Assembly: GCA_045586065.1 (NCBI GenBank)
Contig: JAZMZR010000019.1
Location: forward strand, 26,337-90,336
Source: Candidatus Limivicinus sp.
GTDB taxonomy: Bacteria > Bacillota > Clostridia > Oscillospirales > Oscillospiraceae
Direction of reading: 5' to 3'
DNA: 64,000 bases
Every line of letters starts with the position of its first letter. Position 1 is the first letter of the stretch. Position numbers and translations under genes: made by a program. This document shows, one piece after another, positions 22,698 to 45,030 of this stretch. A model generated the notes under the pieces. It was not told the DNA's origin. It did not search any database and saw nothing but the letters and a program-made list of their open reading frames with translations.

Positions 22698-23480
22698 ATG
22701 TCGGATAATAACTCTTTCGAGATACAGAACGCATTTCCGAGCATACTTGAGATACGCGGCCTGCAGAAATCCTTCTCATCGCTTTCCGTGCTCAAGGATA
22801 TCTCCCTCTCCGTGGACCGCGGCAACGTGATGTCCATCATCGGTCCCTCCGGTTCGGGAAAATCCACTCTTCTGCGCTGCGCTTCCTTCCTCGAGACAGC
22901 GGACGGAGGGGATATCCTCTACGACGGTCAGTATGCCGTGCATGACGGGATCTATGCCCCGAAGGCCGCTCTGAACGGTTTCCGGACCCGCTTCGGACTG
23001 GTGTTCCAGAACTTCAATCTCTTCCCGCATTATTCGGTGCTGCGGAATATCAGCGAAGCTCCGATCCTCCACGGGCAGAACAAAGAAGAGGTCCGCGAGC
23101 GTGCGATGCAGCTGCTGAAGAAAATGGGCCTCGAGGGCAAGGAGAATTCCTATCCCTGCCAGCTCTCCGGAGGCCAGCAGCAGCGTGTGGCCATTGCCAG
23201 GGCTCTCGCCATGCAGCCGGAGATCCTGTACTTTGACGAGCCTACTTCCGCACTCGATCCCGAGCTCACCGGAGAAGTCCTGAAGGTCATCCGTCAGCTT
23301 GCGGATGAAAACATGACCATGGTCATCGTGACCCACGAAATGGCTTTTGCGAGAGCCGTCTCGGAATGGGTGATATTCATGGACGGCGGAGTCATCGTTG
23401 AAGAGGGCGAGCCGGAACGCCTATTCGGAGACCCTGTCCAGGAGAGGACCCGCCAGTTCCTGCGGAATTATCAGCAATGA
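22698..23480 (+). CDS. Amino acid ABC transporter ATP-binding protein
   Basis: About 260 aa with Walker [25 protein letters not shown] and Walker B ILYFDEP. The start is uncertain: ATG 22698 or GTG 22686. Confidence 0.93.
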
Positions 23481-24262
23481 ATAAAACGCGAGTCGATTAC
23501 TGCTATGCCGATCCCGCCGGAAACATCACCATTCTTGTTGAAACTCCTTTCCCGGTATCTGACTATCCTGAAACAGCGTCCAGACTGCTTTCCGCAGAGC
23601 CGTCCGCAGAGCAGGTCGGTTTTATAGAGGGCATTTCCCGCTCCGGGATCTCTCTTCGGATGGCCGGAGGAGAATTCTGTGGCAATGCCGCATTCTCCGC
23701 TGCGGCACTGGCAGCGATGAAGGCCGGAGCAGACGAAGGGGCCTTCTCCGTTGATTTCTTTGGAGTGGACAAGCCTCTCTCTTCCTCGATCAAACGGATC
23801 TCGGAAGGGAGTTATGCCGGGAAGATCGGGATGCCGCTGCCGGAAGAGATCTCCGGCCGGCAATTCCGCTTTCAGGGGACGGACATGTTTCTCCCCGTCG
23901 TGCGCTTTCCGGGAATAAGCCATATCATATGCGCAGAAATCCTGGATCCGGCTTTTGCCGAAGCCGCGCTGAAGCAGTGGTGCTCCGTGCTCGGAGCTCC
24001 TGCCGCGGGGATCATGCAGCTCGATCAGGAGAAGATGTCCCTTGTTCCTCTTGTCTATGTTCCCGCAGCAGACACGCTCTTCTGGGAACGCTCCTGCGCC
24101 AGCGGCACCTGTGCCGCCGCGGTATGGCTGTCCGCAAGCACCGGAAGTTACGGCACATACAGCTTCATCGAGCCGGGCGGTGAGCTCGGAGCCGAAACGG
24201 GCAGCGATTTCATCAATCTGCTCGATTCCGTCACGTTGTCCGTCCGGTCGGCCGAAATATGA
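23477..24262 (+). CDS. Diaminopimelate-epimerase-fold (PLP-independent racemase/epimerase-like) protein
   Basis: 261 aa. The ATG overlaps the ATPase TGA (ATGA). Both halves keep a DapF-type cysteine context: GGEFCGNAA and [12 protein letters not shown]. Confidence 0.65.
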
Positions 24263-24316: not shown

Positions 24317-25543
24317 TCATCTGATCTGTCTGCATTCCAGATAATAGCGCTTTTCTCTCGCGCTGCCGATCGAGAAGCACTTTTGGGGGAACAGTTCTTT
24401 CCGTTTCACCGTGTCGAAGATCTCCTCCTTCTCCACGGCAGGCAGCAGAATATACGCACTGCCCGGCCTGCTCCCCATCGCAACGGCCGTCTCGTCGTCG
24501 TGGATATAGTCCACCTCTCCGCCGTGCTCCTTCAGATACTCCGCGATCATCCTGTCGGTCTCGTCTACGATCTGCCCCACAGAAAGCCCGGATATGCCTA
24601 TCGTGCGTTCACCCGCAGCAGATCCCGCTCGGAGAAGATGCTCCCTTCCGCTCCCGCTGAAAGCGGCAAAATGCTCTCCGACGAACGCCGTGAAATCCGA
24701 AACATCCGATCCGCTTATCACTCTGTGTATGGGTTCGATGCGAATGCCGCTGTCATAGATGTTCACGAGCTCCGCAAGAGCATATCTTGCAGGGTGTGTT
24801 TCCGCTTTGGCGTCCGTCAGCCCTGCCTTTATCCGCTCCCAGAAGAGCTTTGCCGTGGCGAGAGAGTGGTTCCCGTCGCCCATGGCGAGCGCTCCGGCAC
24901 CTTCCGCGGAAACCAGATCGTTCAGTTCCCGCTCCGTCTCCGCGGCTTTTTCTCCGCTTACCGACCAGCCCTTTATATGGCCGCCGCTCTGCATGAGCTC
25001 AAAATCGTATTCTTTTTTCAGTTCAGGCTTCCGGTCACGAAGCTGCCCGGCGATATGGTCCGAAGGATCTTTGTAGAAAATGAGCACATGCGGCATCTCA
25101 AGGACCGCGTTTTCCTTGATCTCGATCCTTTTATATAGTCTCTCTTCCACCGTTCGCTCAGTCGCCTTGATCGCCGCTTCCTTTTCGGGTTTGTATTCAT
25201 ATTCCTCAAGATCGACAGCCGCGACTATCCCGTGCCGGACCGTGCCGTCTTCAAGTTCTCTTTCAATATACATGAATGCGTTGGGCAGCTTCCTGAAAAG
25301 ACCGCTGTCCAGATAGTTTTTCATGTATCCGGATATCCGCTCACGCGCACTCTCCGCCTCCGGGGTCCCCATCAGGGCCTCGGGCAGTATCATGTTGAGC
25401 GTGGACGGCGCATCCCCGACTGTTTTGCGGGTCTCGTCCCAGTAAGCTCTGTCGGACGTGAACTGATCGCACGCTATCACGCTCCACCTGCTCATATCCC
25501 CGGTATCCGGCAAAAGTATATCCGCCGCCTTTATCGTCTTCAT
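24317..25543 (-). CDS. Conserved hypothetical protein, DUF1015-like
   Basis: 408 aa from ATG 25543. N-terminal WSVIACDQFTS ... STLNMILPE resembles the Firmicute DUF1015 subgroup. This is recognition from memory only. Confidence 0.55.
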   Translation of the reverse strand: MKTIKAADILLPDTGDMSRWSVIACDQFTSDRAYWDETRKTVGDAPSTLNMILPEALMGTPEAESARERISGYMKNYLDSGLFRKLPNAFMYIERELEDGTVRHGIVAAVDLEEYEYKPEKEAAIKATERTVEERLYKRIEIKENAVLEMPHVLIFYKDPSDHIAGQLRDRKPELKKEYDFELMQSGGHIKGWSVSGEKAAETERELNDLVSAEGAGALAMGDGNHSLATAKLFWERIKAGLTDAKAETHPARYALAELVNIYDSGIRIEPIHRVISGSDVSDFTAFVGEHFAAFSGSGREHLLRAGSAAGERTIGISGLSVGQIVDETDRMIAEYLKEHGGEVDYIHDDETAVAMGSRPGSAYILLPAVEKEEIFDTVKRKELFPQKCFSIGSAREKRYYLECRQIR

Positions 25544-25607
25544 TCTCCGATCTCCGTTCATGAACCTTGTAAAGAAGATTATACTCCCGACCCCTCAGGT
25601 GACGCAA

Positions 25608-25644
25608 CAGAAACAGCAGCCGGTGCACGGTGCAACGGCTGCTG
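25608..25644 (-). terminator. Hairpin after the TIM-barrel gene
   Basis: The stem cagcagccg / cggctgctg is followed by TTTCTGTTG on the minus strand. Confidence 0.45.
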
Positions 25645-25659
25645 CCTCATGATACAGGT

Positions 25660-26664
25660 TCAGTATTTCTCCCAGTAACGGTCGAGCATGGCAATATGCC
25701 GCCTGATCTGCTCGGCGTCATCGGGATCGGTCCCCTCATATTCGGAAGCGATATATCCGGTATAGTTCTCTTCCTTCATGATGCGCACATAGTTTTCAAA
25801 GTCTATGCCGGGACAGTTGCAGTTTTCATCCATGTAATAGAATTTCCCGTGCATATACTTGGAGTACTTGAGCAGCCTGCGGAAGCCTTCGTAGTCCGGA
25901 TGTGTCCTCCAGTACGGTGTTCCGAATTTCGCGGTATACGGATCGATGGAGAACAGCAGCTTTCTTGCAGCATACTCGTCCGCCTCGTCTCCGCCTTCCG
26001 CGTAGATCATCTTCACGAGCTCCTCCTCCGGGATCTCGGTCGTGGCATAAAGATGATTGATCTTATTCAGCAGTTCCTTATGGACGACACCATCGGGGAT
26101 CGGCGCGAGCACGTTGCCCGGTGCTCCCGATGCAAAGGCCGAAAAGTCCATCACGATGCCGAGATATTCGGAATTCTTCCTCTCAAACAGCTCGTAATAC
26201 TCCTGAAAGATCGGGGTGGTCGGACAATATGGTCCGTGCAGTTCTATGGCAAGATGGATGCCGAGCTCCTCGGCATAAGGCAGCAGCTTCTCCATCGTCG
26301 TCGGAAGCAGGGCGTCCTGACTGCGGACCACCTTAAAGCCCATGTACTTGGCAAATTCCATGCTCGCGACGGCGTCGGTCATGCGTTCCGCCTCGCGTGT
26401 GAATCTGCCCTTGTGTTTGCCGCTGTCCACATAGATGCTGTAGCACACGGGATCCAGCTCGTGTTCCGCACACAGATCCTTGAACGCGTCCATCCATCTG
26501 ACGGAGGGATTCGGATGACCCTGCACCATCTGCGGGGCAACGATCTCTATTCCGTCGCAGCCGATGTCTCTCGCTTTCCGCAGCACATCCTCGAGCGTCG
26601 CGCTGCCATGGACATAGGATCCGCCGAATCCGTAAAGTGTAATGCCGTGTTTCAGTCTGCTCAT
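25660..26664 (-). CDS. Xylose-isomerase-like TIM-barrel protein (sugar phosphate isomerase/epimerase family); candidate C-glycoside deglycosidase large subunit
   Basis: 334 aa from ATG 26664, with GAGGAGG 5 nt upstream, inside the end of the preceding ORF. The pattern is AP-endonuclease-2/TIM-barrel (GCDGIEI ... HLAIELH ... GYIASEYEG). Confidence 0.85.
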   Translation of the reverse strand: MSRLKHGITLYGFGGSYVHGSATLEDVLRKARDIGCDGIEIVAPQMVQGHPNPSVRWMDAFKDLCAEHELDPVCYSIYVDSGKHKGRFTREAERMTDAVASMEFAKYMGFKVVRSQDALLPTTMEKLLPYAEELGIHLAIELHGPYCPTTPIFQEYYELFERKNSEYLGIVMDFSAFASGAPGNVLAPIPDGVVHKELLNKINHLYATTEIPEEELVKMIYAEGGDEADEYAARKLLFSIDPYTAKFGTPYWRTHPDYEGFRRLLKYSKYMHGKFYYMDENCNCPGIDFENYVRIMKEENYTGYIASEYEGTDPDDAEQIRRHIAMLDRYWEKY

Positions 26665-26666
26665 GA

Positions 26667-27167
26667 TCACACCTCCTCTATTCTGCAGATGATGGTCTGT
26701 CTTCCTATTGCCGGATGCTGGAACTCAAGAGCTTTCTCCGCGTAGCCTTCCTCTGCTTCGCCGAAGGAATGCCCGAAATCATTCCTCTTGCTGATCTCTA
26801 TCTCCAATGTGTGTTCACCTGCTCCGAGTCCGCCCACCTTGTTCACGATCACCCAGAGTTCGTCCTTCGCGGCCCAGAAAACATCCGTGTTGTTCCCGGT
26901 CTCGTCCACGTTGCAGAGGAAATCCCTGAGCTGGATGCTCATATCGTTGTGGGACACCTCTTCCCCGTCCACCTTGAGGCTGATATTCTCCAGTGTCGAG
27001 ATCCACACGCCGCGGTAGCTCAGGTTGTTCAGTTTGAACATATACCCGGTGCGGCATCCGCAGATGACCTTGTTTTTCAGGGACCCTTCCCCGATGATGT
27101 CATTGGTCATGAATTCGCCGTGACCCATCGCCGCATCGATCGCGGCGATCCTTTCCTCTATGGTCAT
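26667..27167 (-). CDS. Small partner subunit, DUF6379 / C-glycoside deglycosidase beta-subunit-like
   Basis: 166 aa. The stop lies 2 nt before the TIM-barrel ATG. It carries the pattern LSYRGVWIS ... LKVDGEEV ... GGLGAGEHTLEIEIS. The family call is from memory, not a search. Confidence 0.55.
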   Translation of the reverse strand: MTIEERIAAIDAAMGHGEFMTNDIIGEGSLKNKVICGCRTGYMFKLNNLSYRGVWISTLENISLKVDGEEVSHNDMSIQLRDFLCNVDETGNNTDVFWAAKDELWVIVNKVGGLGAGEHTLEIEISKRNDFGHSFGEAEEGYAEKALEFQHPAIGRQTIICRIEEV

Positions 27168-27482
27168 ACCCGTTTTCTTCCTCCTTCTGTGTATGTTTTT
27201 TCAATACTTATTGTATATGTCGCAGTATATTGATTATACTTTGGATCCTCTCTCTTTTCAAGCGTCAAAGGGTCGCTCTCCCGCTCTTTTTTGTACTATA
27301 ATCACAAAAATGTCCGAACCATGGCCTCCTGCCTTTGGATGATCCATGCAAAATCTCAGCATGATTTTGAAAAAAAAGACAGGATTGTCCTATGGCGTTT
27401 TCTGCGCCTGTTTTGTAAAATATTTATTAAGAGAACAGCAAAAGATCTGTTCAACTCAAAATCATCACAGGAGGAAAAGAAA

Positions 27483-28886
27483 TTGAAAAAACGTATCATT
27501 GCACTGCTGATGGCGGCTGTTATGTGTGTTGCTCTCTTCGCGGGATGCGGACAGTCCGCAGCCCCGGCAGCACCGGCTCAGTCCGACGCTTCCGCACCGG
27601 CAGACACCGCATCTGCTCCGGCAGATAATGCCGCGCCCGTACAGCTCACCCGTGTTCAGGCCATCATCAAAGAGGCCGAAGGCATGACCATGGAAGAGCT
27701 TGCCAAGAAGGCCATTGAAGAGTCCAACGGAAAGACACTCTATGGCGTCGGCAACTCCAGCCGCGGCAAATCCGCTCTGCCTCTCTTCATCGAGTATCTG
27801 AAGACCATCGACCCCAGCTACGATCTCCAGTATGAGTGGCAGCAGCCGAAGAACAACAAGATCTTCGATCAGCTCACCTCCGACTCCAAAAAGAGCGAAG
27901 GCACATTTGCCCTCACTCTCATCCAGGACGGCAACCAGATCGAGAGCAAGATGGTCCAGACCGGCGTTCTCGATACCTTCATCCCCAAGGAGTGGGCAGA
28001 GGCCAACGGCGTTGATGCCGAGACCTATACCGGCTACCTGCCCCTCCAGACCCTCAACAAGGTCTTCATGTACAACAACACCGGCTCCTTCAAGCCCACC
28101 AATGTCTGGGACTTCGTAGGTGAGGGCCAGCACGGCCAGTTCATGGACATCGATTCCGAGATCGTCGGAAAGAACTTCCTCTACATGCTCACCGCTCCGA
28201 AATATGCAGGCTGGCTCAAGGAATCCTTCGACAAGCTCCCCGATGCCCAGAAAGCCTATTTCAAGCCCACCATCGATGAGGTCGCCCAGGATGCCAAGGA
28301 CCTCGGCCTTGATGCCAACGGTGCCTATGCCCTTGCATGGATCAAGCTCTGGGTCGGCTCCTACAATGCTGTGACTGACGACGGCCCGATCTGCAATGCC
28401 CTCGTTCAGAAATCCTCCACCGACCAGTTCGGACTTCTCGTTTACTCCAAGCTCCGTTCCGTCGAGGAAACGGACGAAGTCTCCAAGAACAATATCAATG
28501 TAGCCGCATATGACGACGGTTACGAAGGTATCGGCGGCTACGGCTACTGCCACTACATGTTCGTCACTGACAACTCTCCTCTGCCCTGGACCGCCTGCGC
28601 GTTCATCTCCTACATCACCTGCACCGTTGACGGCTTCTCCGCATGGGGCAAAGATATGGGCGGTTACTCCTCCAATCCCGATGTTGCAAAGGGTGTTGAG
28701 GAAACCTATCACCACTCTCAGGGTGGCGAAGTCGACGGCGTTCTGACTTTCCCCGCCAAGAACGACCGCGGCTATGACTGGTGGACCACCGAAGGTAAGC
28801 TCGTTCTCGAAGATCCCGAATACTGCGCTTCCGTTGCATTCACCGTCGGCAGCTGGATCGAGATCCTCGATAAATACGCCGGCTGA
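27483..28886 (+). CDS. ABC transporter substrate-binding lipoprotein (large, about 467 aa)
   Basis: TTG 27483 has AGGAGG 7 nt upstream. Signal peptide plus lipobox LFAGCG, followed by an Ala/Pro/Ser-rich linker. The track's upstream extension is not coding-like. Confidence 0.85.
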   Translation: MKKRIIALLMAAVMCVALFAGCGQSAAPAAPAQSDASAPADTASAPADNAAPVQLTRVQAIIKEAEGMTMEELAKKAIEESNGKTLYGVGNSSRGKSALPLFIEYLKTIDPSYDLQYEWQQPKNNKIFDQLTSDSKKSEGTFALTLIQDGNQIESKMVQTGVLDTFIPKEWAEANGVDAETYTGYLPLQTLNKVFMYNNTGSFKPTNVWDFVGEGQHGQFMDIDSEIVGKNFLYMLTAPKYAGWLKESFDKLPDAQKAYFKPTIDEVAQDAKDLGLDANGAYALAWIKLWVGSYNAVTDDGPICNALVQKSSTDQFGLLVYSKLRSVEETDEVSKNNINVAAYDDGYEGIGGYGYCHYMFVTDNSPLPWTACAFISYITCTVDGFSAWGKDMGGYSSNPDVAKGVEETYHHSQGGEVDGVLTFPAKNDRGYDWWTTEGKLVLEDPEYCASVAFTVGSWIEILDKYAG

Positions 28887-30815: not shown

Positions 30816-32465
30816 ATGCCTAAGATCACTCTTACACATGTTACCAAGAGATGGGACAAATTCTATGCGGTGGATGATCTCAATCTGGTCATAGACGATA
30901 ACGCCTTCGTTACCCTGCTCGGCCCTTCCGGCTGCGGAAAAACCACCACCCTGCGTATGATCGCGGGACTGGAAACTCCCACCTCCGGCAGGATCACCAT
31001 CGGCGACAGAGTCGTTTTTGACTCAGACGCCGGGATCAACATCCCTCCCAACAAGAGGAAAGTCGGTTTTCTTTTCCAGAACTATGCCCTCTGGCCGAAT
31101 ATGACCGTTTACCAGAACATCTCCTTCGGTCTGAGCAACATAAAGGAAGAGCTACCGAAATATGACCTGGAAGCCCGCCGCACCGCCGCCATGATCCGTG
31201 CCCTCAGCAGACCGGAGGAACTGGTGAGCACCATCCGCGAGTGCGTGGATAAAAAGGGCAAGCTCGATGTGAACAAGGCCCATATCAAGCTGATTGACCA
31301 CTACGAGGTCTCCATCTACACCGCGAAAGAGCTCATGGGCTACAAGCTCCACGAGACCTCCGATCCTGCCGCACTTGCCGCCGCGAAGAAAGCGGAACTC
31401 GAGAAAAAGCTCGAGGTGGCCGCGAAGAAATGCTTTTCCGAGGGATGCACCTTCAACGACGATTACGCCTATGTGAAAGACGGCGTTCCCGTCACGGAAG
31501 TGCGTAAGCTCAGCAAGGAAGAGATCGACCTGAGTGTCCGCCGTGTTTCGAGGATCGTCAAGATCGGCATGTTCATGGACCGTTATCCTGCGGAACTCTC
31601 CGGCGGCCAGCAGCAGCGTGTCGCCATCGCGAGGACTCTCGCTCCGGAACCCAGCGTTCTGTTCATGGATGAGCCTCTCTCCAACCTCGACGCAAAGCTT
31701 CGTCTGGAGATGCGTTCCGAGCTGCAGCGTCTGCACCTTGAGACGGGTTCCACCTTCGTCTACGTCACGCATGACCAGATGGAAGCCATGACCCTCGCCA
31801 CAAGGATCTGCCTGATCGAGAACGGTCTGCTCCAGCAATATGATGCCCCTCTCACCGTATACGGCAGGCCGAACAATACTTTCGTCGCAGACTTTGTCGG
31901 CAACCCCGCCATCAACTTCATCGACGCGAAAGGCAGCCAGAATAGTGACGGAAGCCTTGACCTCAGCATATTTGAGGGAGTTAAGGCTAAATTCGTTCCC
32001 AATGATTCTCTCCGCATTGACGATTGGTATGCCGAGCAGGATGCCTCCGATGAAGCCCGCAAGGCCGCTGAGGCGGAGAAGGCAAAGCAGAAGGGATATG
32101 TGGAAAAGGGCAACAAGGATACGCTCTTCCGCTACCACGTAGCTACCGTGGACGAGGGAGAGGATTACGGCGATGAGGTCGAGGTCGGCAATGACGACTT
32201 TGTCATCGGCGTAAGGCCCGAATTCATCGACATCGTGCCGGACGGCCCCATCGAGGGCGAGATTTATTCCGCGATGCCTACAGGTATGGAGACCACCGTT
32301 AAGATCCAGGTCGGCAGATTCCTTCTCACCGGCGTAGTCTTCGGCGGTGTGCTCTATAACATCGGTCAGAAAGTCCGCTTCGATTTCCGCGGGGATGACA
32401 TCATCCTCTTCAGCAGAAAGAACGGCCGGCTGATCGCGCAGGGCAGTTTGACGCTTATATCCTGA
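30816..32465 (+). CDS. MalK/PotA-type ABC ATPase with large internal insertions
   Basis: 549 aa with Walker A GPSGCGKTT, Q-loop [23 protein letters not shown], Walker B VLFMDEP and H-loop THDQ. About 154 aa lie between the FGL motif and LSGGQ, where I expect about 35-40. Confidence 0.92.
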   Translation: MPKITLTHVTKRWDKFYAVDDLNLVIDDNAFVTLLGPSGCGKTTTLRMIAGLETPTSGRITIGDRVVFDSDAGINIPPNKRKVGFLFQNYALWPNMTVYQNISFGLSNIKEELPKYDLEARRTAAMIRALSRPEELVSTIRECVDKKGKLDVNKAHIKLIDHYEVSIYTAKELMGYKLHETSDPAALAAAKKAELEKKLEVAAKKCFSEGCTFNDDYAYVKDGVPVTEVRKLSKEEIDLSVRRVSRIVKIGMFMDRYPAELSGGQQQRVAIARTLAPEPSVLFMDEPLSNLDAKLRLEMRSELQRLHLETGSTFVYVTHDQMEAMTLATRICLIENGLLQQYDAPLTVYGRPNNTFVADFVGNPAINFIDAKGSQNSDGSLDLSIFEGVKAKFVPNDSLRIDDWYAEQDASDEARKAAEAEKAKQKGYVEKGNKDTLFRYHVATVDEGEDYGDEVEVGNDDFVIGVRPEFIDIVPDGPIEGEIYSAMPTGMETTVKIQVGRFLLTGVVFGGVLYNIGQKVRFDFRGDDIILFSRKNGRLIAQGSLTLIS

Positions 32466-32556: not shown

Positions 32557-33573
32557 TTGAAAAAGATCCTGCCGGTCGTTTTCCTTCTGCTAACCATGCT
32601 GTTTTCCGGCTGCGGCTTCCGTGCGGATCCGCAGCTGCTGGACTATTCTCCCGAAGCGTCCATGCGTCTCGTTATTTATACTTCCCACAAGGAAGAGGTC
32701 TACGGGCCGATCATCGAGGAATTCGAGAAGAGGACCGGGATCTGGGTGGATCTTGTTGCCGGCGGCACCGGTGAGCTTCTCGAACGTATAAAGAAGGAAG
32801 AGAACGCGCCCGTTGCGGACGTTATGTTCGGCGGCGGTGTGGAGAGCCTGCTCTCCTATGCAGACTGCTTCGAGCCGTACACGGTCTCCGGTGCAGACAG
32901 CTTTATGCCCGGACTGCGTCAGCCGGACGATATCTGCACGCCTTTTTCCTCTCTCCCCTCTGTTATCATTTACAACACAAGACTCGTCCGTCAGGGTGAG
33001 ATCACCGGCTGGGCGGATCTGCTCGATGAACAGTGGAAGGGCAGGATCGCTTTCGCCAATCCTTCGGTCTCGGGTTCGAGCTACTCCGCTGTCATGACCA
33101 TGCTCACCGCTCTGGACGGAGACCGCTGGGAACTGCTTGCGCGTTTCTACGAAAATCTGGATTCCGCCGTGCTCGAAGATTCCGGAGATGTCGCCTCCAT
33201 GGTCGGCTCCGGGGCGATGTCCGTAGGGATCACTCTCGAACAGACGGCCTTGAAGAGTATTGCGCAAGGCGCCAAGATCGGGATCATCTATCCTGCGGAA
33301 GGCACGAGTATCCTGCCCGACGGCTCCGCTCTTGTCGCGGGAGCGCCTCATCGCGATAATGCAGTCGCTTTTCTGGAGTTCGTACAGAGCACGGATGTTC
33401 AGAATCAGGTCGTCAGCAGTTTTTCACGCAGATCGGTCCGTATCGACGTGGCTGACAGGGAAGGACTGCTCCCTGCAGATCAGATCCCGCTTGTGGAGTA
33501 TGACGTTGAAGAGGCTTCCGCTTTGAAAGAGGAGTTCCTGCAGAGATGGAACTCTCTCAGAAAGGGAGGCTGA
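32557..33573 (+). CDS. Fe3+/thiamine-family substrate-binding lipoprotein, probable sensor partner of the adjacent kinase
   Basis: 338 aa. TTG start with GGGGGAGG upstream, lipobox FSGCG, and RLVIYTSHKEEVYGPIIEEFEKRTGIWVDLVAGGTGELLERI, typical of FbpA/AfuA-like SBPs. Confidence 0.85.
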   Translation: MKKILPVVFLLLTMLFSGCGFRADPQLLDYSPEASMRLVIYTSHKEEVYGPIIEEFEKRTGIWVDLVAGGTGELLERIKKEENAPVADVMFGGGVESLLSYADCFEPYTVSGADSFMPGLRQPDDICTPFSSLPSVIIYNTRLVRQGEITGWADLLDEQWKGRIAFANPSVSGSSYSAVMTMLTALDGDRWELLARFYENLDSAVLEDSGDVASMVGSGAMSVGITLEQTALKSIAQGAKIGIIYPAEGTSILPDGSALVAGAPHRDNAVAFLEFVQSTDVQNQVVSSFSRRSVRIDVADREGLLPADQIPLVEYDVEEASALKEEFLQRWNSLRKGG

Positions 33574-33574
33574 C

Positions 33575-35314
33575 ATGTTCAAAAGTACTTATCAGCAGTC
33601 TCTTTTCCGTACTTTTCTTCTGGCCGGCGCACTGCCGCTGATCATATGCGTCATCCTGATCCTGAGCATATTTCGGATCTCTTCCGAGGCAAACACCGAG
33701 CGGACGGGCCAGTCGCGCATCGGCTCCATGTCACGAGCTGTCACCTCCTTTACATCTCAATCCGAAGCGGCACTGAACAGGGTGGTCTCCGATCCTCTGA
33801 TAACCTCGGCTCTTGATCAGCATTCTCCCGCCAGCACGGAGATCTATCACGTTCTGTACAGCGCTCTCAACGATATCCCCTCCTCCCCCGACATATCAGT
33901 CTATGACTCCGGCGGTGTCCTTCTGTACACCACCGGCGACGGAAAGCCGGGAGAAAAGCTCTCCACAGACTGGGGGCTGCTCTTCTCCGCCCGTGACAAA
34001 GACCGGGTCGTGTTCCGCAGGACCTCTCCCTATGATTCCGGACAGCGCAGCTGTATGGAGATCGCCTGTCCTGCCAAAAGCGGCGGGTCCATACGCGGCT
34101 ACGCCGTGATAGAAGTATCGGATGCCTGCCTTTCCGGACTGCTTGCGGATCTTACCGCCGAGACGGATTACATGCTCCTCGACCCTATGTGGAACGAGGT
34201 CCAGGCCTCTCCGTTTCTGAAGGAAGCAGATGCCGCATCGCTCCTTCGCGGCTCTCTGCTCCACCCCGGCGGCTCCGACACGCTTCTGGATGATTACCGT
34301 CTCTTCATCTCCCGCGATGAAAACAGCGGATTCGTCTCCGTGCTCTGTATGGACAGACCTCTCAGCGACCATACCGCACGTATCCTGTATGCCGTGGCGC
34401 TTTTTTCGATCCTTCTCTGCCTTTTTCTCTGTCTGCTGTTTTCCGTCCGTCTGAGCAAACGGGTCTCAAAGCCCGTCCGGTCTCTGAATGAGGCAATGGC
34501 TCAGGTTGAGCAGGGAAATCTCGATGTGCAGCTGGAGGAGACCGGTACCGACGAGCTCAGTATGCTCTCTGCGCATTTCGGCCGTATGACCGGGCAGCTC
34601 AAAAGCAACATTAACAGCTCCATCCGTCAGCAGCAGGAACTTGGAGAGACCAAGATGCGTATGATGCAGGCGCAGCTGAATCCCCACTTTCTCTATAACA
34701 CGCTCGACACGATGAAATGGCTCGCCAAGATACATCATGTCCCGGAGATCTCCACCATCTCCGCCAACCTTGCGGACATACTCCGCAGCAGTATCTCTGC
34801 AGATGAATTCGTCCCTCTCCGGGATGAACTCAAAATGCTCGAAAGATATGTCGAGATCCAGAAGATCCGTTTCCCGGAGAAATTTGAATACCGCACGCAG
34901 ATCGATGAAGAGACTCTTGACCTGCTCATCCCCAAGCTCATGCTGCAGCCTCTCGTGGAAAATGCCATCATCCACGGCTTTGAAGACGGCAGCAGCGGCG
35001 AGATAACCGTCTCTTCAACTCTGGCGAACGACCTGCTTGTTCTTGAAGTACGCGACACGGGCTGCGGGATCTCGGAAGAGATGAAGAAAGCCTTCCTCTC
35101 CGCACGCAGCGATGCCGGCGAACACAGCAGGGGCCATCTCGGCCTGCACAATGTCGATGCCATCCTGCGCCTGAACTACGGTGAGGAGCACGGTCTGCAG
35201 ATCACCGATGCCTGCCCCGGCACCTGCATACGTGCAGAACTGCCGGTAGAAAACGTGAAGAAAAACGCCGATCGGGAGAACAAAAATGAAAAGGATAGTA
35301 GTGGTAGAAGATGA
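33575..35314 (+). CDS. YesM-like sensor histidine kinase (HAMP + His_kinase + HATPase_c)
   Basis: 579 aa with two TM helices flanking a periplasmic-type domain, a HAMP region, QLNPHFLYNTLD (LytS/YehU-type H-box) and an ATPase N/G boxes region. Confidence 0.9.
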   Translation: MFKSTYQQSLFRTFLLAGALPLIICVILILSIFRISSEANTERTGQSRIGSMSRAVTSFTSQSEAALNRVVSDPLITSALDQHSPASTEIYHVLYSALNDIPSSPDISVYDSGGVLLYTTGDGKPGEKLSTDWGLLFSARDKDRVVFRRTSPYDSGQRSCMEIACPAKSGGSIRGYAVIEVSDACLSGLLADLTAETDYMLLDPMWNEVQASPFLKEADAASLLRGSLLHPGGSDTLLDDYRLFISRDENSGFVSVLCMDRPLSDHTARILYAVALFSILLCLFLCLLFSVRLSKRVSKPVRSLNEAMAQVEQGNLDVQLEETGTDELSMLSAHFGRMTGQLKSNINSSIRQQQELGETKMRMMQAQLNPHFLYNTLDTMKWLAKIHHVPEISTISANLADILRSSISADEFVPLRDELKMLERYVEIQKIRFPEKFEYRTQIDEETLDLLIPKLMLQPLVENAIIHGFEDGSSGEITVSSTLANDLLVLEVRDTGCGISEEMKKAFLSARSDAGEHSRGHLGLHNVDAILRLNYGEEHGLQITDACPGTCIRAELPVENVKKNADRENKNEKDSSGRR

Positions 35315-36020
35315 GGAAGTCGTCCGCCAGGGCATCGTCCATGCCGTGGATTGGGACAGCATCGGCTGTCAGGTGATCGGCGAAGCTTCGAACGGCCTGG
35401 CAGGTCTTGCTGTCATCCGGGATAAAAAACCGGATCTTATAGTCGCGGATATAAAGATGCCCATGATGGACGGGATCGATATGGTCCGCGCCTTGCGTAA
35501 GGATGGCATCGGATGCCGCGTGATCTTCCTCACAGCCTATTCGGATTTCAGTTTTGCACAGCACGCGGTAAAGCTCGGCGCCGCGGACTATCTGCTCAAG
35601 CCTTTCCGTGACGGGGAGCTCGAGGAAGCAGTCCGAAGATCACTTGAAGCCGCCCCGTCTCCCGTTCCGCAGCCTTCTGCCGGGCAGGATGCGAAATACA
35701 GCCGATATGTGCTTGAAGCGATGAAGTATATAGACTCGCATTACAGCGAGGATATTGGTCTCGGCACGATCGCCGATCATCTGGGTTTGAGCGAGAGCCG
35801 TCTCAGCCACCTTTTCAAAGACGAGACCGGCCAGTCTCCCGGCAGCTATCTTATACAGACCAGGATCAAAGCCGCGATGGAAATGCTCAGGGACTGCCGC
35901 AGTAAAGTCTATGAGGTGGCGGAGCAGACCGGGTTCCGGGATATAGCCCATTTCAGTTCCACCTTCAAAAAGATTGTTGGAGTGAGTCCTTCCGAATATC
36001 AGAAAACGGCAGCGGACTGA
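35286..36020 (+). CDS. Response regulator with AraC-type HTH output (YesN-like, short form)
   Basis: 244 aa. The receiver has DLIVADIKMP, and the C-terminal AraC HTH has IAHFSSTFKKIVGVSPSEY. It overlaps the kinase end by 29 nt. Confidence 0.9.
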   Translation: MKRIVVVEDEEVVRQGIVHAVDWDSIGCQVIGEASNGLAGLAVIRDKKPDLIVADIKMPMMDGIDMVRALRKDGIGCRVIFLTAYSDFSFAQHAVKLGAADYLLKPFRDGELEEAVRRSLEAAPSPVPQPSAGQDAKYSRYVLEAMKYIDSHYSEDIGLGTIADHLGLSESRLSHLFKDETGQSPGSYLIQTRIKAAMEMLRDCRSKVYEVAEQTGFRDIAHFSSTFKKIVGVSPSEYQKTAAD

Positions 36021-36485: not shown

Positions 36486-37478
36486 TCAGCACATCGTGGC
36501 GTATATCACGGCCTTTATTGTATGCATCCGGTTCTCCGCCTCGTCGAACACCACAGACTGCCCGGATTCGAAAACCTCGTTCGTCACTTCCATCTCCGGC
36601 AGGCCGAAACGCTTCTCGATATCCGCGCCTATGGTGGTGCGGGTATCGTGGAAAGAGGGCAGGCAGTGCATGAATATCGCGGTCGGTTTCGCCTTTGCCA
36701 TCAGTGCGGCGTTCACCTGATAGGGTCTGAGCAGACGGATCCTGGACTCCCAGACCTCATCCGGTTCTCCCATGGAGACCCAGATATCCGTATAGATAAC
36801 ATCCGCGTCAGCCGCGCCTTCATCCGTGTCTTCCGTCAGCCTGACCGAACCGCCGCTCTCTTCTGCGATCTTTTTCGCTTTCTCCACCAGTTCCTCTGCC
36901 GGAAACAGTTCCTTCGGCGCACAGGCCGTGAAGTTCAGCCCCATCTTCGCACAGGCGATCATCAGGGAATTGCCCATATTGTTCCGGGCATCCCCCATAT
37001 ATGTCAGGTTAAGTCCTTTCAGCCGGCCGAACTTTTCTTCAATGGTAAGCAGATCCGCCAGCATCTGTGTGGGGTGGAACTGGTCCGTCAGTCCGTTCCA
37101 TACAGGCACGCCCGAATACTCCGCCAGTTCCTCCACCAGCCTCTGGCTGAAGCCGCGGTATTCTATGCCGTCGAACATCCTGCCGAGCACTCTGGCAGTG
37201 TCCGGGATGCTCTCCTTCTTTCCCATCTGTGAGCTTCCGGGATCAAGAAACGTCACTCCCAACCCCAGATCGTGGCCAGCCACCTCAAAAGCGCAGCGGG
37301 TGCGGGTGGATGTCTTTTCAAACAAAAGGACTATGTTCTTCCCCTCAAGACGGCGGTGCAGTGTCCCGCTGCGTTTCATCTCCTTGAATTCCTTTGCCTG
37401 GTCAAGCAGATAGCGGATCTCCTCCGGTGTATAGTCCAGAAGCGTCAGGAAGCTTCTTCCTCTCATATCTTTCTCCAT
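36486..37478 (-). CDS. argF: Ornithine carbamoyltransferase
   Basis: 330 aa with STRTR, HPTQ and [10 protein letters not shown] motifs. The C-terminus closely resembles the ArgI/ArcB pattern. Whether the role is anabolic or catabolic is unresolved. Confidence 0.93.
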
Positions 37479-37508
37479 AACCTGATCCCTCCCTTAAACC
37501 GTTTCCAG

Positions 37509-38603
37509 TTATTCAAGTCTGCCCGCTGTTATGCGTATGAAATCCTGCACATTCGTCACCATGGTGGTCGCGGAAAGACTGCCTCTGTCCAGAAGCTTGT
37601 TCACCACGAATTCATCGGCATCCACCGCGTAAAAGTATACGGGCCTTACCGTCCCGTCCGGCAGGACCCTGTAGGAAGGCGTCATGTTTCCGGAGGCGAT
37701 GGTGTGCAGCATGGTCGCAAGGCAGATCACCGTAGTTGCTTTTCTCAGGACTCCTCTCATCGTGTCCTGCGCGCGGTATACATCGGATATCACCTCGGGG
37801 AGAGGCCCGTCGTCACGGATCGATCCGGCGAGGACAAATGGTACTTTATTTCTCACACAGGCACATATTATCCCGTCATCCAATCCGTATTCCTTTATGA
37901 AGGTCGGGATGGAACCGCATTTCCTGACTTTGTTGCAGATGTCAAGATGGTTGTAATGTCCGTTGGGCATCGAACGCTGGGTATAAATGTCCTGTCCGAG
38001 CGCGGTGTGGAGCAGGGCTCCCTCAAGATCGTGGGTCGCAAGGGCATTCCCCGCCAGAAGACCGTGGCAGTAGCCCTTGTCTATCAGGGATGCCATCGCG
38101 CTCCTCGCTCCCGCGTCGAATGCAAAGGCCGGCCCCATTACCCATACTATGTTCCCGTGTTCCCTCTCATAGGAAAGGAGCTCCGTCAGCCTGTCGTAAT
38201 CGCGGGCGAAAGCGGTTTCACGGCTTCGTCCCTGCCGGAACACAAACTGGTCATCCGATCCGGCGTCGCCCGGATCCGTGAAGCCGTCGCAGTGCATATA
38301 GATGCCCTCTTCGGCTCTTTCCGTGCGCCCGAGGACCACGGCATCCCCTTTGCGGAGATTTCTGTTTTCGATCACATACGGCTGTCCGTCTTCCCGGATC
38401 ACCACGCTCGAATCCATGCGGCTGTCCGCGGCCAGCGTCCATTTCCCGCCGATCTTGAAGTACTCCGGATACATCGAAGTGCTGTGGTAGCCCTCCGGTG
38501 CAACTCCGTCGGCAGGTGCGGGGGCAGTCCTGACATCCGGTGATGAGCTGAACTCCGGAAGCGAAAAGTCAGGATGGCGGTATTCCGGCAATACAAATCC
38601 CAT
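37509..38603 (-). CDS. LOR/SDH-domain (TIGR00300-like) protein, archaeal-type ornithine cyclodeaminase-like
   Basis: 364 aa from ATG 38603 with a GAGGAGAAG SD. The pattern GNIVWVMGPAFAFDAGARSAM ... GYCHGLLAGNALATHDLE ... PFVLAGSIRDDGPLPEV is recognised from memory. Confidence 0.7.
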   Translation of the reverse strand: MGFVLPEYRHPDFSLPEFSSSPDVRTAPAPADGVAPEGYHSTSMYPEYFKIGGKWTLAADSRMDSSVVIREDGQPYVIENRNLRKGDAVVLGRTERAEEGIYMHCDGFTDPGDAGSDDQFVFRQGRSRETAFARDYDRLTELLSYEREHGNIVWVMGPAFAFDAGARSAMASLIDKGYCHGLLAGNALATHDLEGALLHTALGQDIYTQRSMPNGHYNHLDICNKVRKCGSIPTFIKEYGLDDGIICACVRNKVPFVLAGSIRDDGPLPEVISDVYRAQDTMRGVLRKATTVICLATMLHTIASGNMTPSYRVLPDGTVRPVYFYAVDADEFVVNKLLDRGSLSATTMVTNVQDFIRITAGRLE

Positions 38604-38658
38604 GATTCTTCTCCTCTGCTTTCCTGTTTTCGGTCTTCTCAATGAATGATCCTGCGAT

Positions 38659-44199: not shown

Positions 44200-45030
44200 T
44201 CAATAATACGGAAACAGTTTCAGGCGGTTGTCGCCGCTGCGGTTCGGTCTTCCGAGCGTTACTTCACCGGATGCAGCCCACTCCACGCCACGCACCAGCA
44301 TGGTGATGAAGTTAAAGCGGTCAAGGGCCTCCCAATGCCCTATGGAAGTGACGAACACACGGCCCTTGCCGTATTCGTTGGTCCAGATCACGGGGGTATA
44401 TTCATTCACGCCCGGCATATTCTCCAGTTTGCCGTCCGGAATATCCACGGGGTGGTGTGCAGGCGGGAAGCCGGGTACACGGTAATTGTTCACGTCGTCA
44501 AAGATGGATGCGAGCACGTGGATCTTCGCCTCGGGATGAATGATCAGCTGCGAGAACAGATCGTCAAAGACGTTCATCCACTTCTGGTCGATGTCTTTTG
44601 TAATGGGGCTGTCCGGATCGGTGATCTCAACGAAATGATCGTCCTTCGGGCAGCGGCGGCAGCCCATGGTCATATCGCAGTAGCCGCCCAGCAGCTTGCG
44701 CCACTCATCCGGCCAGTCGTGATCCACCCAGATGGTGGAGTGATAGAAGATTATGCCCTTTCCCTTTGCCACGAAGTCGTAAATAGCGGCCTCCGTCTTC
44801 TCTCCGAAACGGCGGGCTTTCTCGGTGGGGAACAGTTTCCCGTCATAATCGATGAAGAGCGCATCATACGGCTCAAGGTATTCCGGGGTGATATTGCGCA
44901 GTTCCTCCGTATAGACCACGTTGAAGCGCCCGGTCGCCTCCAGGAGCTCCCGAAGCCTGGCCGTGATCTTCCTTCCCTGGTGCTCGACTGTGATCAGACC
45001 GCCTACAAGCAGGATATTGAGTTTGTCCAT
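44200..45030 (-). CDS. ThuA-domain (trehalose-utilisation-like) protein
   Basis: 276 aa with a class-I glutamine-amidotransferase-like ThuA pattern and a good SD. Confidence 0.75.
   Translation of the reverse strand: MDKLNILLVGGLITVEHQGRKITARLRELLEATGRFNVVYTEELRNITPEYLEPYDALFIDYDGKLFPTEKARRFGEKTEAAIYDFVAKGKGIIFYHSTIWVDHDWPDEWRKLLGGYCDMTMGCRRCPKDDHFVEITDPDSPITKDIDQKWMNVFDDLFSQLIIHPEAKIHVLASIFDDVNNYRVPGFPPAHHPVDIPDGKLENMPGVNEYTPVIWTNEYGKGRVFVTSIGHWEALDRFNFITMLVRGVEWAASGEVTLGRPNRSGDNRLKLFPYY

Follow-up and report, generated by a model that had tools for sequence, protein, structure and literature searches.

Forage and the human diet are rich in C-glycosyl flavonoids, and to our knowledge only a small number of gut enzymes able to cleave these compounds have been characterised. 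Among the C-glycoside deglycosidases (CGDs), which combine a TIM-barrel alpha subunit with a smaller beta subunit, DgpB-DgpC (PuCGD) of the human gut strain PUE (7bvr, 7exz, 7xrf) is encoded in the order beta-then-alpha with the oxidase gene dgpA adjacent, and its structure unites an E/D/H/K/E metal site and a catalytic His/Glu pair with a beta sandwich that carries a key tyrosine. DgpB2/C2 of strain W974-1 (9m3a) and DfgA-DfgB of Eubacterium cellulosolvens (7bvs) share this heteromeric fold. The CarB-CarC/AgCGD2, Deinococcus aerius and Microbacterium testaceum enzymes (7dnm, 8qvc, 8qrz) belong to the same family and have the same catalytic residues, although the actinobacterial and Deinococcus CGDs have FAD/GMC-type 3-oxidase partners (CarA). 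AtOGE and the Bacteroidota 3-keto-glucoside 1,2-lyases (8tcd, 8tct) are also Mn2+-dependent TIM-barrel beta-eliminases that act on 3-keto-glycosides, but they are single-subunit enzymes without a CGDB partner. Here we describe a two-gene locus that very probably encodes an alpha/beta member of the CGD family, found in a stretch of 64,000 nt (the window) of Candidatus Limivicinus sp. (assembly GCA_045586065.1, contig JAZMZR010000019.1, positions 26,337-90,336 of the forward strand).

The locus consists of two minus-strand open reading frames (ORFs) with ATG starts, the first of 166 codons (26667-27167) and the second of 334 codons (25660-26664). The 166-residue product, the DgpB-like beta subunit, matches the Pfam family PF19906 (CGDB, formerly DUF6379) over residues 21-128 with an E-value of 3e-23 and a score of 82 bits (cut-off 27.6), while the 334-residue product, the DgpC-like TIM-barrel alpha subunit, matches PF01261 (AP_endonuc_2) with an E-value of 1e-16. 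Compared with PDB sequences, alpha finds DgpC of strain PUE as its best match (7bvr_A; 8e-54 over residues 1-333), below which only CGD alpha chains follow, down to 4e-21. The best match of beta is DgpB (1e-10, or 1e-19 with a profile), again followed by CGD beta chains only; all alpha matches with E <1e-20, and likewise all beta matches with E <1e-3, are CGD subunits. Sequence similarity is lower for 9m3a and DfgA (2e-40 and 4e-26), and the actinobacterial and Deinococcus enzymes are much more distant relatives (E 1e-21 to 1e-36). The predicted folds agree. For the AlphaFold model of alpha (predicted local distance difference test, pLDDT, 92.4) the 16 best Foldseek matches in the PDB are all CGD alpha chains, with template-modelling (TM) scores of 0.71-0.83; 9m3a ranks second, and generic sugar isomerase barrels follow the CGD chains only after an E-value drop of seven orders of magnitude. 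DgpB-DgpC is among the best fold matches of the pair (TM ~0.8). AtOGE and the 8tcd and 8tct lyases are far weaker fold matches (E ~1e-8, TM ~0.5). With the beta model (pLDDT 76), CGD beta chains take all of the first 17 places, 9m3a being at the top (E 7e-13). The initial annotation, made from the sequence alone, had read the large ORF as a xylose-isomerase-like TIM barrel, recognised a DUF6379 pattern in the small one and proposed a CGD-like pair; the two Pfam matches confirm the first two of these assignments, and sequence, fold and catalytic residues bear out the third.

Protein searches place the window alpha among about 80 protein clusters at 46-97% identity, the named sources of which are Lachnospiraceae, Oscillospiraceae, Clostridiales, Bifidobacteriaceae and one Chloroflexia; a lookup of contigs by exact identity to this alpha sequence returned none. 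At the level of the locus, the window was compared with relatives from its own lineage (L001, L006, L017 and L018/L019), with clade relatives outside the lineage at 61-66% alpha identity (L002-L005 and L007-L013), and with loci from other Oscillospiraceae that hold homologues of a neighbouring importer (L014-L016). The nearest public genome is the Oscillospiraceae metagenome-assembled genome RGIG2401 from goat ileum (L006, JAFRER01), which shares synteny with the window and has an alpha subunit of 97% identity; the beta subunit of L018/L019 is 74% identical to that of the window.

In AgCGD2 the Mn2+ ion is held by E147, D179, H269, K271 and E305, and the catalytic pair H149/E307 corresponds to H143/E301 in PuCGD (Mori et al., PMC8563793). 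The window alpha subunit aligns E141, D173, H272, K274 and E308 with the five metal ligands, and H143 and E310 with the catalytic His/Glu pair, within the motifs E-x-H, D, H-x-K and E-x-E that it shares with AgCGD2. All seven of the metal and acid-base residues published for CGDs are thus present in the TIM barrel, and not one of them varies among the 78 homologues. On the beta side, Tyr39 of DgpB is required specifically for the cleavage of C-glycosides and not of O-glycosides (Bitter et al., PMC10628242); it aligns without gaps with Tyr51 of the window beta subunit, which is invariant in the clade beta alignment. Strong purifying selection acts on the two genes: measured against four relatives, dN/dS is 0.02-0.06 in alpha and 0.08-0.11 in beta (dS 0.6-2.3). 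The genes are not obviously foreign. A recent horizontal acquisition was considered and rejected, as the overall GC content of the pair and that at third codon positions match those of its neighbours and leave no compositional signal.

The organisation of the two genes is that of a compact transcription unit. A near-consensus sigma-70-like promoter, TTGAAA-17-TATAAT with 11 of 12 matches, lies at 27233-27261 on the minus strand and is also found in L006, L001 and L017, and the beta ORF has its own ribosome-binding site, GAAGGAGGAAG. The beta ORF ends GAG GAG GTG TGA; its stop codon (26669-26667) is followed by the dinucleotide TC and then by the ATG of the alpha ORF (26664-26662), and a GAGGAGG Shine-Dalgarno sequence (26678-26672) sits within the final beta codons, 7 nt upstream of the alpha start. 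The coordinates, the strand, the 2-nt spacing and the Shine-Dalgarno motif first annotated for the pair are all upheld by direct reading. This coupling is kept in relatives, where the two ORFs overlap by 4 nt (L017) or stand 1 nt apart (L018), and beta-then-alpha adjacency recurs in every locus examined. A natural fusion of beta to alpha, matching the gene order of the window, is found in the Microbacterium testaceum enzyme (8qrz). Directly after the alpha stop codon a GC-rich hairpin is followed by UUUCUGUU (25606-25648, minus strand; dG -38 kcal/mol, z -4.0), which together are likely to form an intrinsic terminator that closes the bicistronic unit. Strong hairpins of differing sequence occupy the equivalent site in L001, L006, L017 and L018, where a conserved GAGTATAAT box then precedes the next gene. 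Since the pair has its own promoter, translational coupling and terminator, we regard it as a discrete bicistronic operon.

One element goes beyond a straightforward family assignment, and it is the only one to do so. Past its Pfam domain the beta subunit carries a C-terminal tail, K127-R-N-D-F-G-H-S-F-G-E137...E140-G-Y142...A-x-E-F, which in the clade takes the form DFGHS[FY]GE..EGY (K-R-x-D-F-G-H-S-[FY]-G-E...E-G-Y) and whose residues are invariant down to 42% identity. In the related loci the motif occurs exactly once each, in the beta subunit that is paired with the clade alpha, and is lacking from every further CGDB paralogue encoded there. In a search of 1.84 billion proteins it was present in 3 of 88 CGD-beta representatives, and a PDB search with the tail peptide returned spurious tetratricopeptide-repeat matches only. 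DgpB possesses neither this tail (DFGHSFGE..EGY in the window) nor the 20-residue N-terminal helix of the window beta subunit, and the motif is likewise missing from DgpB2/C2 (9m3a) and DfgA-DfgB. The tail motif marks a small, uncharacterised CGD subfamily. In the model of the isolated beta subunit the pLDDT is lower than 50 over residues 134-145, which make up most of the motif, and the final strand is modelled with confidence, a pattern that fits a loop which may become ordered against alpha. A bolder reading holds that the tail-bearing beta subunits define a mechanistically distinct CGD subfamily, in which the tail would enter the alpha active site, contribute an extra His or acidic residue and shift either the substrate scope or the proton-transfer step, the oxidising partner being unlinked or non-canonical in this lineage; this we consider unlikely. 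If true, the scope might be altered towards, for example, forage flavone C-glycosides or non-flavonoid C-glycosides.

The explanation that we favour, and judge to be likely, is that the locus is a self-contained bicistronic operon for an Mn2+-dependent CGD of the DgpB-DgpC kind that works with an unlinked DgpA-type oxidase. According to this scheme an unlinked Gfo/Idh/MocA enzyme of the DgpA type would oxidise the sugar C3 of an imported aryl C-glycoside, or of an O-glycoside, and the alpha-beta complex would bind the resulting 3-keto sugar at the Mn2+ site formed by the five aligned ligands. H143, helped by E310, would then act as the base that takes the C2 proton, and beta-elimination, a mechanism taken from the characterised enzymes (PMC8563793, PMC10628242), would break the C-C bond to yield the aglycone and 2-hydroxy-3-keto-glucal. 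The beta subunit would close the aglycone pocket with Tyr51 and probably also with its conserved C-terminal tail. As substrates we envisage 3-keto-C-glycosides derived from plant polyphenols and, very probably, 3-keto-O-glycosides. That the two subunits would assemble into a stable heterocomplex, with the active site at their interface, we infer indirectly from their translational coupling, the universal adjacency of their genes, the fusion seen in 8qrz and the low-confidence tail of the isolated beta model.

Several observations weigh against this explanation. Alpha is 35% identical to DgpC and beta 31% identical to DgpB; none of the solved CGD beta chains aligns to the tail motif, and the substrate scope may differ; the members of the clade are unassayed, the pair being a fresh, uncharacterised branch of the known CGD family; no regulator or transporter is attributable to the pair; and no Gfo/Idh/MocA or GMC oxidoreductase came to light when every large ORF of the window was scanned against Pfam. 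The distance of the clade from DgpC (only ~35% identity) and its distinct beta tail also leave room for a generalist 3-keto-glycoside beta-eliminase that would act mainly on 3-keto-O-glycosides or other 3-keto sugars, and not on aryl C-glycosides. PuCGE (DgpBC) cleaves both 3-keto-O- and 3-keto-C-glucosides, and a generalist role was proposed for it by the authors of that work (PMC10628242). However, the beta tyrosine needed for C-glycoside cleavage is invariant, and dedicated O-glycoside eliminases such as AtOGE work without a beta subunit (PMC10628242). A generalist enzyme, which we think improbable here, overlaps with the favoured DgpB-DgpC-like CGD and does not exclude it.

The lack of a linked oxidase deserves closer attention. 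The initial annotation had noted the absence of any Gfo/Idh/MocA or GMC-type oxidase from the 64 kb, and the Pfam scans agree on this with a six-frame tblastn of the window, in which three Gfo/Idh/MocA proteins from related CGD loci found zero matches; the 10-kb flanks in L001, L006, L017 and L018 hold no Gfo/Idh/MocA or GMC gene either. Clade relatives outside the lineage have Gfo/Idh/MocA genes adjoining the pair or at most 10 kb away in five of nine distinct contexts. L002-L004 and L007 resemble Dfg loci, with beta and alpha followed by two Gfo/Idh/MocA genes and a second TIM barrel (beta-alpha-Gfo-Gfo-TIM); the window lacks the Dfg-type accessory genes. In L005/L009 another CGDB-TIM-Gfo cluster lies 1.4 kb downstream, in L010 and L011 Gfo genes are at most 5 kb away, and the flanks of L008, L012 and L013 contain none. 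The subfamily is therefore normally tied to a canonical oxidase, and the linkage has been lost in this lineage; as in Catenibacillus, a DgpA-type oxidase is probably encoded elsewhere in the genome. The same annotation had treated the missing neighbour as unusual and suspected that the chemistry may differ from that of described CGDs. Neither suspicion is supported: clusters of dgpBC that lie apart from dgpA genes have already been described in Catenibacillus (PMC11170127), the catalytic residues of the pair are invariant, and its clade relatives adjoin Gfo/Idh/MocA genes. Catenibacillus, like the present organism, belongs to the gut Firmicutes and holds several such separated pairs, but it is a member of the Lachnospiraceae and not of the Oscillospiraceae; its likeness to the window is one of gene arrangement, and the pairs there are biochemically unassayed.

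It is very unlikely that the organism itself lacks a 3-oxidase, with the pair either scavenging 3-keto-glycosides from other members of the community or persisting as a decaying remnant. The want of an oxidase throughout the window, and within 10 kb of the pair in five related genomes of the lineage, is what such a view would expect, but the strong purifying selection excludes decay and an unlinked dgpA is the documented explanation in Catenibacillus. Moreover, the 3-keto-glycosides of DgpABC-type pathways are labile intracellular intermediates, which speaks against scavenging. A stand-alone gene of the ThuA family (trehalose utilisation) is present at 44200-45030 on the minus strand. ThuA and ThuB are linked to 3-keto-disaccharide formation in rhizobia; as a keto-sugar connection for the pair the ThuA-like gene was set aside, since it lies 17 kb away and has no ThuB/Gfo partner.

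On its other side the pair faces a divergent operon across an intergenic region of 316 nt. This operon encodes an ATP-binding cassette (ABC) importer whose solute-binding protein SBP1 (27483-28886, plus strand) is a lipoprotein with an LFAGC lipobox. SBP1 is an orphan family of solute-binding proteins: searches of Pfam, NCBIfam and PDB sequences gave zero matches, while more than 3000 homologues exist, at 72-75% identity across Oscillospiraceae genera. The permease is a fused, two-domain protein of the PhnU2/AfuB-like type. In the ATPase (30816-32465, plus strand; 549 aa) an insertion of ~120 aa, roughly residues 105-229, splits the ABC_tran domain, and the ATPases of L014-L016 are of similar length. 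At 32557-36020 on the plus strand follow a second solute-binding protein, a His_kinase/HAMP sensor and an AraC-type response regulator that together resemble the hexose-phosphate sensing system HptA/HptS/HptR of Staphylococcus aureus; the sensor system sits here with an ABC importer instead of with UhpT. The second solute-binding protein matches S. aureus HptA with 6.5e-30 and AfuA with 9e-22. HptA is a glucose-6-phosphate sensor that works with HptS/HptR (PMC8050422), and AfuA is a sugar-phosphate binder (PMC4546632). The importer is of the AfuABC/Phn class, is widespread among Oscillospiraceae and probably serves the uptake of organophosphates or sugar phosphates.

That the pair faces an atypical ABC importer with its own sensor, as first annotated, is physically correct; the functional link that this implied is not supported. 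One could picture pair, importer and three-component sensor as a single module that takes up its own substrate and breaks it down by an oxidase-free lyase chemistry unlike that of known CGDs. The divergent arrangement with its shared intergenic region is indeed kept in L006, L001 and L017, and an imperfect palindrome, TTTTTGTGATTATAGTACAAAAAA (TGTGA-N6-GTACA, Crp/Fnr-like), lies at 27280-27300 between the two promoters. The palindrome recurs in the same three relatives and is absent from L018, which lacks the importer block. Nevertheless, co-occurrence of importer and CGD genes does not hold across genomes. In L014-L016, SBP1 stands with the same permease and ATPase, HAD phosphatases and an HptA-like sensor, and no CGD genes are found near the importer; in L018/L019 beta, alpha and the next downstream gene, encoding a DUF1015 protein, are retained immediately after an arginine-deiminase cluster, and nothing of the importer/sensor block is present. 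The importer is likewise absent from all clade relatives outside the lineage, SBP1 with its thousands of homologues across genera contrasts with the sparse CGD clade, and the likeness of the second solute-binding protein to HptA and AfuA points to sugar phosphates. We therefore reject the importer as a functional partner: importer and CGD each occur alone, and their adjacency in the window is thus a lineage-specific juxtaposition and no functional module. A joint module is accordingly extremely improbable. In L018 (5586-11525) a cluster of arginine deiminase, ArgZ-like, ornithine carbamoyltransferase (OTCase) and carbamate kinase genes precedes the CGD pair on the same strand at a distance of 59 nt; the window retains only the ArgZ-like and OTCase genes (36486-38642), and the importer block is inserted between these and the pair.

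Downstream of the pair the DUF1015 gene (24317-25561, minus strand) follows in the window and in L001, L006, L017 and L018. The idea that it is a third gene of the operon, or stands in as a partner of the CGD, was considered and rejected: the conserved hairpin terminator and the conserved GAGTATAAT promoter split it from alpha in all five relatives, it is not found near clade relatives outside the lineage, and PDB and NCBIfam searches with the protein gave zero matches, for which reasons we take it to be a separate gene. It also evolves far faster than the CGD genes, with identities of 53-90% as against 86-97% for alpha. It adjoins, in all lineage relatives, a CntK/HisR-like histidine racemase homologue (23477-24262, plus strand; NCBIfam 3e-28, below the cut-off) that ends an amino-acid ABC transporter operon. 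Elsewhere in the window, each strand of the segment 58252-59817 has a long ORF (plus strand, 521 aa; minus strand, 472 aa) with zero Pfam matches.

The features that make the locus look unusual are thus of two kinds: the absence of a nearby oxidase has a precedent, and the atypical importer is unrelated to the pair. Inference from the gene neighbourhood would mislead in this case, as the facing transporter is unsupported as an importer of the substrate. The established oxidation-then-elimination mechanism is left unchallenged by our findings. The locus extends the CGD family into the Oscillospiraceae of the rumen and gut, and the unassayed subfamily that is marked by the beta tail would be worth expressing and profiling for its substrates.

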